Shown here piece after piece: positions 33,646 to 34,495 of a DNA stretch of 64,000 nucleotides (its first letter is position 1; each line of letters begins with the position of its first letter). Under the pieces are notes generated by a model. The model saw nothing but the letters and a program-made list of their open reading frames with translations, was not told the DNA's origin and did not search any database. The translations under genes and the position numbers were made by a program. The stretch lies in the NCBI RefSeq assembly GCF_054482525.1, contig NZ_CM137006.1; one strand, given 5' to 3'.

Positions 33646-34495
33646 GAATCCCCCTGCAACAAAAACAAACAGTCTCCGGCGTGTGCTTTTTGGCTGCGCC
33701 AGAACGATACCTTTACGCCGGAGTGGTAGTTTGTTGAGGTTTAGGGAGTTTCAGGCTGTACGCAGTACAGACTGCCTGCGAAGCAGGAGTGTCTCCGGGG
33801 CTTCTTGCCCCCCTCGGTATCGATCTTTTTCTCCTTTACTCTTAGCTGACAGCGGCCCCAAAGGGCATGTCAGACGGCGGAAATATGGCGCAGGCCAGAA
33901 CTGGCGCGGCTTGTGGCGGTGAGTTGTGCGGCGTCACTTTGCTTTTTCGCTGGCGCGACCAAAGTGACGCCTCGTCTGGTGCAGGGGGTAAACGTTACGT
34001 TTCTGGTGCAGGGTGACGGTCACGCGGCAGCAAAGCCTGACGGCAATGCAGGCCGCAGCCCGTCAATGTAAGGCGCTGGTTGTCAGCAGAAGATAAAACC
34101 CGGCAAAGCCAGAGTGTCAGCCCGTAAAGCCGGGTATCTGGTGCAGTGATGGTGTATATGTACGTCAGTCTCAGATGCAGGTATTTTTGCATCCCCGGCG
34201 TTTTCAGAGATCAACGCCGGTAAAGGATGCCATGCTGGCGAAGCCAGGCGCTTCTTTCAGACGTGAAGCGACAAAGGGACTGCCCGGAGGCAGTTTGTTG
34301 CAGGCGGGAGACTGCGCCATTATTTCTGGTGCAGGAAGGAAAAACTGTTTCCGGGTTTAAAAGATTGTTTGCTTACCTGGTGACGGAAAAACTGCCGCGC
34401 TTCGCTTGTCTTCTCCCGGCGCGCTGCCAGCAAAAGCAGGCAGCGCGCCGGGAGAGTCTGGTTTTACTGTAACAATGCGCCTGACGGTTCAGCCA

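Follow-up and report, generated by a model that had tools for sequence, protein, structure and literature searches.

A conserved structured region ending in the EFASI RNA motif, proposed as the leader of a tyrosine recombinase gene in Escherichia coli

The 850-nt spacer described here occupies positions 33646 to 34495 of a 64,000-nt stretch of Escherichia coli DNA (contig NZ_CM137006.1, assembly GCF_054482525.1; the whole stretch is termed “the window”). It lies within an 11-kb island at a tRNA-Asn gene, beside yeeO, and separates a Ner-like gene (ner) from a tyrosine recombinase gene (int1), both on the minus strand. Read on that strand, the spacer carries a chain of covarying helices and ends in EFASI, a curated RNA motif. 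We interpret the spacer, with moderate confidence, as a long structured non-coding leader RNA of int1 in a unit headed by a C4 antisense RNA. Support is good both for an RNA and for its strand; the mechanism is inferred. The EFASI motif was already known; what is new is a longer conserved structured region of which EFASI is only the 3′ domain.

The match to EFASI covers 128 nt of the spacer (E = 1.2e-20 with the Rfam covariance model), and its 3′ end lies 55 nt ahead of the int1 start codon. Every related locus in which that stretch is present and uninterrupted carries the motif in the same position. Outside EFASI, the rest of the spacer gave no match to an Rfam family. As quoted in PMC12370729, the name stands for “Enterobacteriaceae, Frequently Around STAXI and Integrases”, and the motif is a candidate RNA of unknown function whose described location is upstream of integrase genes, with STAXI several hundred bases further up. 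The elements of the spacer and the genes that bound it are listed below in 5′ to 3′ order on the minus strand.

34496-34750, minus strand: ner, a Ner/SfsB-like HTH_35 gene (PF13693, E = 9e-31) that bounds the spacer
34412-34431 / 34436-34455, minus strand: H1, a 20-bp hairpin with a 4-nt loop, 95% complementary, with one mismatch
34392-34410, minus strand: 19-nt tail GACAAGCGAAGCGCGGCAG following H1, near-invariant across genera
34326-34334, minus strand: R1, a copy of the repeat CTGCACCAG, with a degenerate version (CTGCAACAA) at 34295-34303
34279-34294, minus strand: small hairpin ACUGCC-UCCG-GGCAGU, which covaries between genera in alignments read directly
34235-34262, minus strand: box CUGAAAGAAGCGCCUG plus hairpin CUGGC-UUC-GCCAG, the box being invariant or nearly so in 20 sequences
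34169-34220, minus strand: PK, a pseudoknot-like element made of stems S1 and S2 and an inserted hairpin, S3
34215-34220 with 34195-34200, minus strand: PK stem S1, CCGGCG/CGCCGG
34204-34210 with 34169-34175, minus strand: PK stem S2, UCUCUGA/UCUGAGA
34174-34193, minus strand: PK inserted hairpin S3
34138-34146, minus strand: R2, a copy of CTGCACCAG inside an arm (34135-34159) of a 25-nt inverted repeat
34014-34089, minus strand: core module of 76 nt, containing TTTGCTGCCGCGTGACCGT and almost invariant across genera
33976-34011, minus strand: R3 and R4, two copies of CTGCACCAGA 27 nt apart that flank the small hairpin AAACG-UAA-CGUUU
33930-33941 / 33960-33971, minus strand: H3, a hairpin with base GCGUCACUUU/AAAGUGACGC and 12-nt arms that are 100% complementary
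33846-33873, minus strand: H4, candidate hairpin CUGACA..UGUCAG just 5′ of EFASI, from an alignment read directly
33701-33828, minus strand: EFASI RNA motif (Rfam RF02957), 100.8 bits against a gathering score of 51.2, model positions 1-133 of 133
33715-33723 / 33674-33682, minus strand: closing hairpin CUCCGGCGU / ACGCCGGAG, a 9-bp GC-rich stem with a 32-nt loop
33657-33673, minus strand: U-rich tract ACUGUUUGUUUUUGUUG, then a G-rich Shine-Dalgarno sequence and the int1 AUG (33645)
32929-33645, minus strand: int1, a frameshifted Integrase_1 / Phage_int_SAM_2 tyrosine recombinase gene with its start codon at 33645
32194-32437, plus strand: inverted array 3′ of int1, with CTGCACCAG exact at 32207, 32236 and 32429 and degenerate at 32264 and 32299

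Compensatory changes were found in H1, H3, PK and the closing hairpin when homologous loci were compared, a check that the initial annotation of this DNA had suggested. That annotation, made from the letters alone, had listed a perfect 16-bp stem at 34413-34454 and an 11-bp inverted repeat at 33931-33941 / 33960-33970. Both are present, the first contained within the 20-bp H1 and the second measured as the perfect 12-nt H3. For H1, an alignment (A3) of 10 distinct sequences drawn from different genera has 97% of its cells paired, and 8 of the 20 pairs have changed on both sides, a degree of covariation reached by 0 of 500 shuffles. H3 has an invariant base and a covarying top, with both-side changes at seven pairs (helices 4-5). 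Within PK, all six S1 pairs form in 19 of 20 sequences and two positions covary (CG/UA/UG and GC/AU), S3 covaries freely (GAUGCA/UGCAUC, UCGCAG/CUGCGA, GCCGCAG/CUGCGGC), and the S2 core CCUC/GAGG takes the form UCUC/GAGA in the window. Variants of the small hairpin at 34279-34294 include GCUGUC..GACAGC, GCCGUC..GACGGC and ACCGUC..GACGG, and a counterpart of H4 (CCUGA..UCAGG) is present in one group of loci, group B. The region and its compensatory changes extend from Escherichia to Pantoea, the Rahnella group and Brenneria.

The folded strand was assigned from wobble pairs. On the minus strand G·U pairs are common, whereas the plus strand has few (37 versus 5 and, in H1, 12 versus 2); the folded strand is therefore that of the genes. 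The earlier proposal that the hairpins belong to a structured RNA following the Ner-like gene is borne out as to their covariation and the gene strand, but the region is tied to int1 and not to ner.

The closing hairpin is not part of EFASI as modeled in Rfam. Its 5′ arm is the conserved CCGGCG that is left unpaired in the Rfam model, and its 3′ arm lies outside the model. At least seven distinct complementary arm pairs occur among the loci, including CCCCGGCGC/GCGCCGGGG, CCCCGGCGU/ACGCCGGGG, UUCCGGCGC/GCGCCGGAA, CCCCGAUG/CAUCGGGG and wobble variants. The hairpin appears in the minimum-free-energy (MFE) fold and, together with the U tract, lies 11 nt from the Shine-Dalgarno sequence of int1.

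On the leader reading, the spacer would be the distal part of a transcription unit with the order C4 - hyp153 - ner - spacer - int1, where hyp153 is a 153-aa hypothetical gene. A scan found no sigma-70-like promoter in the spacer, and conserved boxes sought by eye were unconvincing; this is compatible with read-through from upstream. H1 would mark or stabilize the 3′ end of the ner message as a stem-loop. The leader would consist of the helix chain H1, PK, invariant core, H3 and H4, with EFASI as the final domain, and EFASI plus the closing hairpin would gate transcription and translation into int1. Because the closing hairpin crosses the outer stem of EFASI, the two would be either alternative foldings or parts of one pseudoknot. 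We infer both transcription of the spacer and its action in cis from sequence comparison.

Several observations weigh against a gating leader. Downstream of the closing hairpin the sequence reads ACUGUUUGUUUUUG, so that the U tract begins 4 nt past the stem, and the loop exceeds the limit of the terminator scanner. Because the tract is displaced and is absent as a conserved feature in group B loci, termination is not established. In the MFE fold, CUCCCU of EFASI pairs with GGGGG of the int1 ribosome-binding site, a point in favor of gating; this pairing of ACCUCAACA with the ribosome-binding region is not conserved in its sequence details, however, and it was dropped. The whole spacer is far more stably folded than its shuffles, with z = -6.9 for the minus strand and -7.05 for the plus strand, but these values are equal and thus uninformative on strand. 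The core can form a 52-nt hairpin at 34014-34065 (95.8% paired) with one covarying pair only; it appears to be conserved as sequence, almost without covariation, which would also suit a DNA site. Toxin-antitoxin cassettes split the spacer in some loci, and therefore it is not one obligatory continuous RNA. Finally, Rfam assigns EFASI the type “Gene; sRNA”, a probable trans-acting small RNA (sRNA).

That classification underlies a rival explanation, in which EFASI and STAXI would be independent trans-acting sRNAs, with promoters of their own or processed from the operon, and with targets elsewhere in the island or the host in place of int1 in cis. The closing hairpin and U tract could be the terminator of such an RNA, and the neighboring C4 and isrK-like RNAs are processed or trans-acting. 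In PMC12370729, real-time PCR on outer-membrane-vesicle preparations of a Shiga toxin-producing E. coli (STEC) strain amplified EFASI and STAXI RNAs; a homologue of EFASI is therefore transcribed, which counts for the leader reading as well. On the other side stands the fixed position of the motif, whose end is 55-160 nt away from the int start in every locus, for integrases that are 42-100% identical. The promoter scan of the spacer was negative, as noted, and no candidate target was identified. We regard independent sRNAs as unlikely. In E. coli 33-6 (L050, 2834-3946), IS421 of the IS4 family is inserted within EFASI. A leader peptide was considered on the basis of AAGGAGAACAUG, which group B loci carry at the start of EFASI, and was dropped since group A, which includes the window, has no AUG there. 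An anti-Shine-Dalgarno role of the repeats, suggested by CCCCCUGCACCA, which in the window complements the int1 ribosome-binding site UGUUGCAGGGGG, was dropped as well because the sequence of this site is not conserved in other genera.

To define the distribution of the region, the invariant 19-mer of the core was used as an exact pattern to scan 100,044 species genomes. About 30 Enterobacterales loci were recovered, and other matches were at about the number expected by chance. The genera include Escherichia, Citrobacter, Salmonella, Klebsiella, Kluyvera, Cedecea, Lelliottia, Serratia, Pantoea, Brenneria and others. In loci with available flanks, the order hyp153 - ner - spacer - int1 on one strand is constant in about 25 genera of Enterobacterales. 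From the 19-mer to the int1 start the distance is 390-450 nt, and EFASI follows the 19-mer by about 200 nt. With blastn, hundreds of E. coli genomes proved to carry a 125-nt piece alone (33965-34089), as did pESI-type megaplasmids of Salmonella; in the pESI copy (L003) an insertion sequence (IS) element cuts the locus at the start of EFASI. Across 415 genomes the spacer sequence occurs at a median of one place per genome, on islands only and never on plasmids. One locus (L030; JAEWTL010000009.1, 5 kb) comes from a metagenome-assembled genome labeled Bacillota and holds an Escherichia-type core, EFASI and an int1 pseudogene, near-identical to E. coli C11; the contig is probably mis-binned.

More distant relatives of Int1 on plasmids also favor a leader. 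Integrases that are 42-57% identical to Int1 were found on plasmids of Pantoea, Klebsiella, Erwinia, Citrobacter and Salmonella, each preceded by ∼0.9-1.9 kb without annotated genes. That the long unannotated leader with H3 and EFASI is retained at this level of divergence supports the leader reading. Using Rfam models, the plasmid order is STAXI - H3 - EFASI - int, with STAXI 430-560 nt upstream of EFASI and, in six plasmid loci, H3 165-205 nt upstream of EFASI. A second STAXI, in direct repeat, follows int in three of five such loci. STAXI (RF01728; threshold 40.5 bits) gave no match in 33640-34500, even at E ≤ 10, and was absent from 20 related chromosomal loci; the same search scores 64-102 bits in the plasmid loci. 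Conversely, STAXI-bearing plasmid loci hold zero copies of the repeat CTGCRCCAG, and a Salmonella plasmid without STAXI carries copies of CTGCGCCAG instead. STAXI and the module composed of the core plus CTGCRCCAG are thus alternatives at one position, and H3, EFASI and the closing hairpin are universal in these loci.

The CTGCRCCAG repeats had been noticed earlier as recurring ctggtgcag, the plus-strand form; the spacer holds four exact copies of CTGCACCAG (at 33976, 34003, 34138 and 34326) and one degenerate copy. The window as a whole contains 14 copies of CTGCRCCAG versus 1.03 expected, a number reached by 0 of 100 shuffles. A third copy of CTGCACCAGA is present in L004 by way of a 27-nt insertion. 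The 25-nt arm around R2 (34135-34159) has its partner at 32194-32218, beyond int1, with 84% complementarity. The downstream array sits in a conserved non-coding stretch (32190-32450) that bears GGCCCTTT repeats. Arrays are similarly arranged in nine other loci (L002, L004, L005, L007, L023, L026, L027, L041 and L047). In most other genera, direct copies lie upstream of int1 and 3-6 inverted copies, 27-35 nt apart, lie downstream; a few loci are without a downstream array, and in group B loci and a Salmonella plasmid inverted copies fall inside the int coding sequence, within its first 300 nt. Because inverted arrays recur on both sides of int1, the repeats most likely serve to bind a protein that the element encodes, either the recombinase or the Ner-like protein. 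The arrays could equally provide the int1 message with complementary RNA segments at either end.

Two side observations belong to these arrays. On the plus strand of 32190-32450, CTGCGCCAG and CTGGCGCAG form a pair about 110 nt apart, a potential stem; this stretch, whose conservation reaches from E. coli to Klebsiella indica, Tenebrionibacter and Cedecea, has no Rfam match. In E. coli K71-77 (L049, 4519-4540), a deletion joins the outer edge of R2 (34137/34138) to a yeeJ-like Ig-domain gene (54157). The junction has a 2-bp TA microhomology, is shared by at least four genomes and is the sole rearrangement end found at the motif. As a single event with a 2-bp microhomology, it is probably a coincidence, and it was rejected as a recombination scar.

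Arrays of this kind raise a second rival, a DNA-level recombination-site complex of Int1. Here the hairpins would form in single-stranded DNA, and the segment between the arrays would be inverted, excised or resolved. The inverted arrays of a 9-bp motif that flank int1, including the 25-nt inverted repeat, would be accounted for, as would a core that is invariant rather than covarying, cassettes that vary directly behind H1, and the invariant bases and variable tops of H1 and H3, which resemble attC. G·T wobble is tolerated in folded DNA too, and single-stranded DNA was raised for STAXI by Weinberg et al. (PMC2864571). However, neither an inversion nor a precise excision variant was seen among the ∼25 loci and the E. 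coli matches examined, and the cassettes have no second flanking H1-like site. The STAXI copies of plasmids are direct repeats, seemingly ahead of successive genes. Moreover, the multi-helix folds of EFASI and PK are typical of RNA, and all elements are co-oriented with the genes. We consider a DNA-level complex to be unlikely.

RNA and recombinase could also be linked more closely. A multi-domain RNA of ∼0.8 kb, made up of PK, the invariant core, H3 and a pseudoknotted EFASI, would then be a working partner of Int1 in an RNA-assisted or RNA-gated recombinase module, with STAXI as the interchangeable plasmid counterpart. Its task would be to bring the CTGCRCCAG arrays together, either as DNA ends or as complementary RNA segments. 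We hold this to be distinctly improbable.

Very unlikely in our estimate is a decaying, functionless spacer with ordinary terminators or repetitive extragenic palindromic (REP)-type palindromes, both of which had been suggested for the hairpins. H1 does lie 40 nt past the stop codon of ner, a weak T run follows it on the plus strand (by scan), and int1 and hyp153 are pseudogenes in this strain. On the gene strand, however, no U tract follows H1, where the sequence reads CGGGAGAAGACAAGCG, and the scan placed no minus-strand terminator there; a U-rich tract follows the hairpin after EFASI and no other, and the terminator suggestion is thus at best partly right. REP elements are largely refuted, since the spacer is single-copy per genome and confined to islands and no further copy of the H1 arm was found within the window. 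Conservation with compensatory changes as far as Brenneria, and a curated RNA motif inside the spacer, also speak against a functionless sequence.

That the spacer encodes one or more small proteins is scarcely credible: the Prokaryotic Genome Annotation Pipeline (PGAP) does annotate a 52-aa hypothetical protein (WP_000301065.1; 33913-34071, plus strand) that overlaps H3 and the core on the opposite strand, and tblastn matches the core in other genera, but this similarity is confined to the DNA-invariant core, start codons are not conserved, and single-nucleotide indels break the frame within this best-conserved block, so that the core is not coding. Not conserved as an open reading frame (ORF) and without a Pfam match, the PGAP prediction was rejected as a gene. 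More generally, no spacer ORF of at least 40 aa is conserved across genera, homologues showing stops, frame changes or similarity limited to the core, in agreement with the initial annotation, which had found no convincing ORF. Its description of the spacer as GC-rich needs qualification: the length of 850 bp is correct, and the G+C content (55.9% in 33646-34495) exceeds that of the whole window (49.1%), but only moderately.

Cassettes vary behind H1. In other loci toxin-antitoxin cassettes (HigA, HigBA, PemIK) follow the H1 tail. Differing cassettes occupy this one site in L004 (5856-6158), in L043 and L023 (HigBA-like pair) and in L026, L033 and L003 (PemIK/MazEF-like pair), and they begin directly after the 19-nt tail; the window carries none. 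No second H1-like hairpin was found behind the toxin-antitoxin cassettes, and an integron-like cassette site was rejected on the ground that the cassettes are not bounded by a second hairpin.

The chromosome of E. coli strain 1190 is 100% identical over the studied region. On the minus strand the locus begins with c4-a1b1, isrK-like and C4 RNA matches at 35261-35446 and continues with hyp153 (34747-35207, frameshifted), ner, the spacer and int1. C4 antisense RNA (RF01695) scores 62.2 bits, above threshold; the isrK-like (45.2 bits) and c4-a1b1 (43.8 bits) matches fall slightly under their thresholds in the window, and all three exceed them in L004, L007, L023 and L043. This segment is a P1 immI-like control region at the head of the hyp153-ner unit. 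Relatives of int1 without the frameshift encode 294 aa (PF12835, E = 4e-59; PF12834, E = 1.5e-39 for an intact homologue) and retain the catalytic R, HxxR, H, Y pattern; sequence comparison detected no relative in the PDB. The Int1 family comprises 1485 protein clusters at E ≤ 1e-10, all with generic names, and its XerC/D-like members are found on islands with type VI secretion system (T6SS) and Rhs genes and on large plasmids. Because int1 and hyp153 are both frameshifted in the studied strain, the local system is probably an inactive relic. Both genes are intact in E. coli TD225-C4 (L005), and hyp153 alone is intact in O145:H28 (L004).

Several observations concern the rest of the island. 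A P4-type integrase gene at 30227-31591 adjoins the tRNA gene. The AT-rich DNA between it and int1 holds a 131-nt direct repeat (31793-31923 / 32021-32151; 73% identical, 228 nt apart) as well as a 42-nt imperfect palindrome at 31817-31902. The cargo at 35729-39910 on the plus strand consists of a gene for an Rhs core protein (1393 aa) and, behind it, a gene for a tetratricopeptide repeat (TPR) protein. In L002 and L004 the same island backbone bears type VI secretion genes.

Parts of the locus resemble known systems. Phage P1 and P7 immI (C4 RNA) and satellite P4 (CI RNA) have leaders controlled by antisense RNA. The locus shares with them a head of c4-a1b1/isrK-like and C4 sequences followed by small regulatory genes, and a structured leader that is proposed to gate a downstream gene. 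It differs in that the spacer lies far downstream of C4, past two ORFs, that no C4 target site was noted in the spacer, no search having been aimed at one, and that the gated gene would be a recombinase gene and not an antirepressor or replication gene. In a second group, TnpI with the internal resolution site of Tn4430 and IntI with attI-attC of integrons, a core site and accessory repeats lie beside the recombinase gene; attC of integrons and attP of the CTX phage are hairpins that fold in single-stranded DNA. Int1 is likewise a small tyrosine recombinase that lacks an arm-binding domain; beside its own gene are several copies of one short motif, hairpins with conserved bases and variable tops, and variable cassettes. 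Here, however, the arrays extend over 0.4 kb on each side, the cassettes have no flanking sites, and the local helices carry gene-strand G·U pairs and include a curated RNA motif.

STAXI is a pseudoknot unit, repeated two or three times in tandem, with a short conserved single-stranded motif. Its neighbors are integrase genes and, “occasionally”, c4 antisense RNAs, and Weinberg et al. favored RNA over single-stranded DNA as its form (PMC2864571). The spacer module resembles it in its equivalent position, since STAXI precedes H3 and the same integrase family on plasmids, and here too a C4 RNA is nearby. In place of STAXI the window has PK, the core and CTGCRCCAG. Its single pseudoknot-like element and repeated units of CTGCACCAGA plus hairpin are unlike the STAXI unit and do not form a tandem series of a single pseudoknot, and the motif arrays are inverted whereas STAXI copies are direct.

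The closest known system is EFASI itself. Our search of the literature on EFASI, STAXI, PF12835 and RNA-guided tyrosine recombinases found no functional study. STAXI (Weinberg et al. 2010) and EFASI (Weinberg et al. 2017) are orphan motifs near DNA-manipulating genes, widespread on enterobacterial plasmids and islands. The window fits the description of the EFASI family in its full-model match, in an Enterobacteriaceae host, directly ahead of an integrase gene. It has no STAXI upstream, an association that is frequent in the family and not obligatory. Further differences are the covarying closing hairpin, which exceeds the Rfam model, and the size of the whole, EFASI being the last 128 nt of a structured region of ∼800 nt. 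The closing helix, unmodeled so far and abutting the ribosome-binding site of the integrase gene, provides a concrete cis-regulatory hypothesis. H3 emerges as a universal companion of EFASI, and the previously undescribed core plus CTGCRCCAG module alternates with STAXI at one position. EFASI and STAXI are thereby tied to one uncharacterized family of XerC/D-like recombinases.

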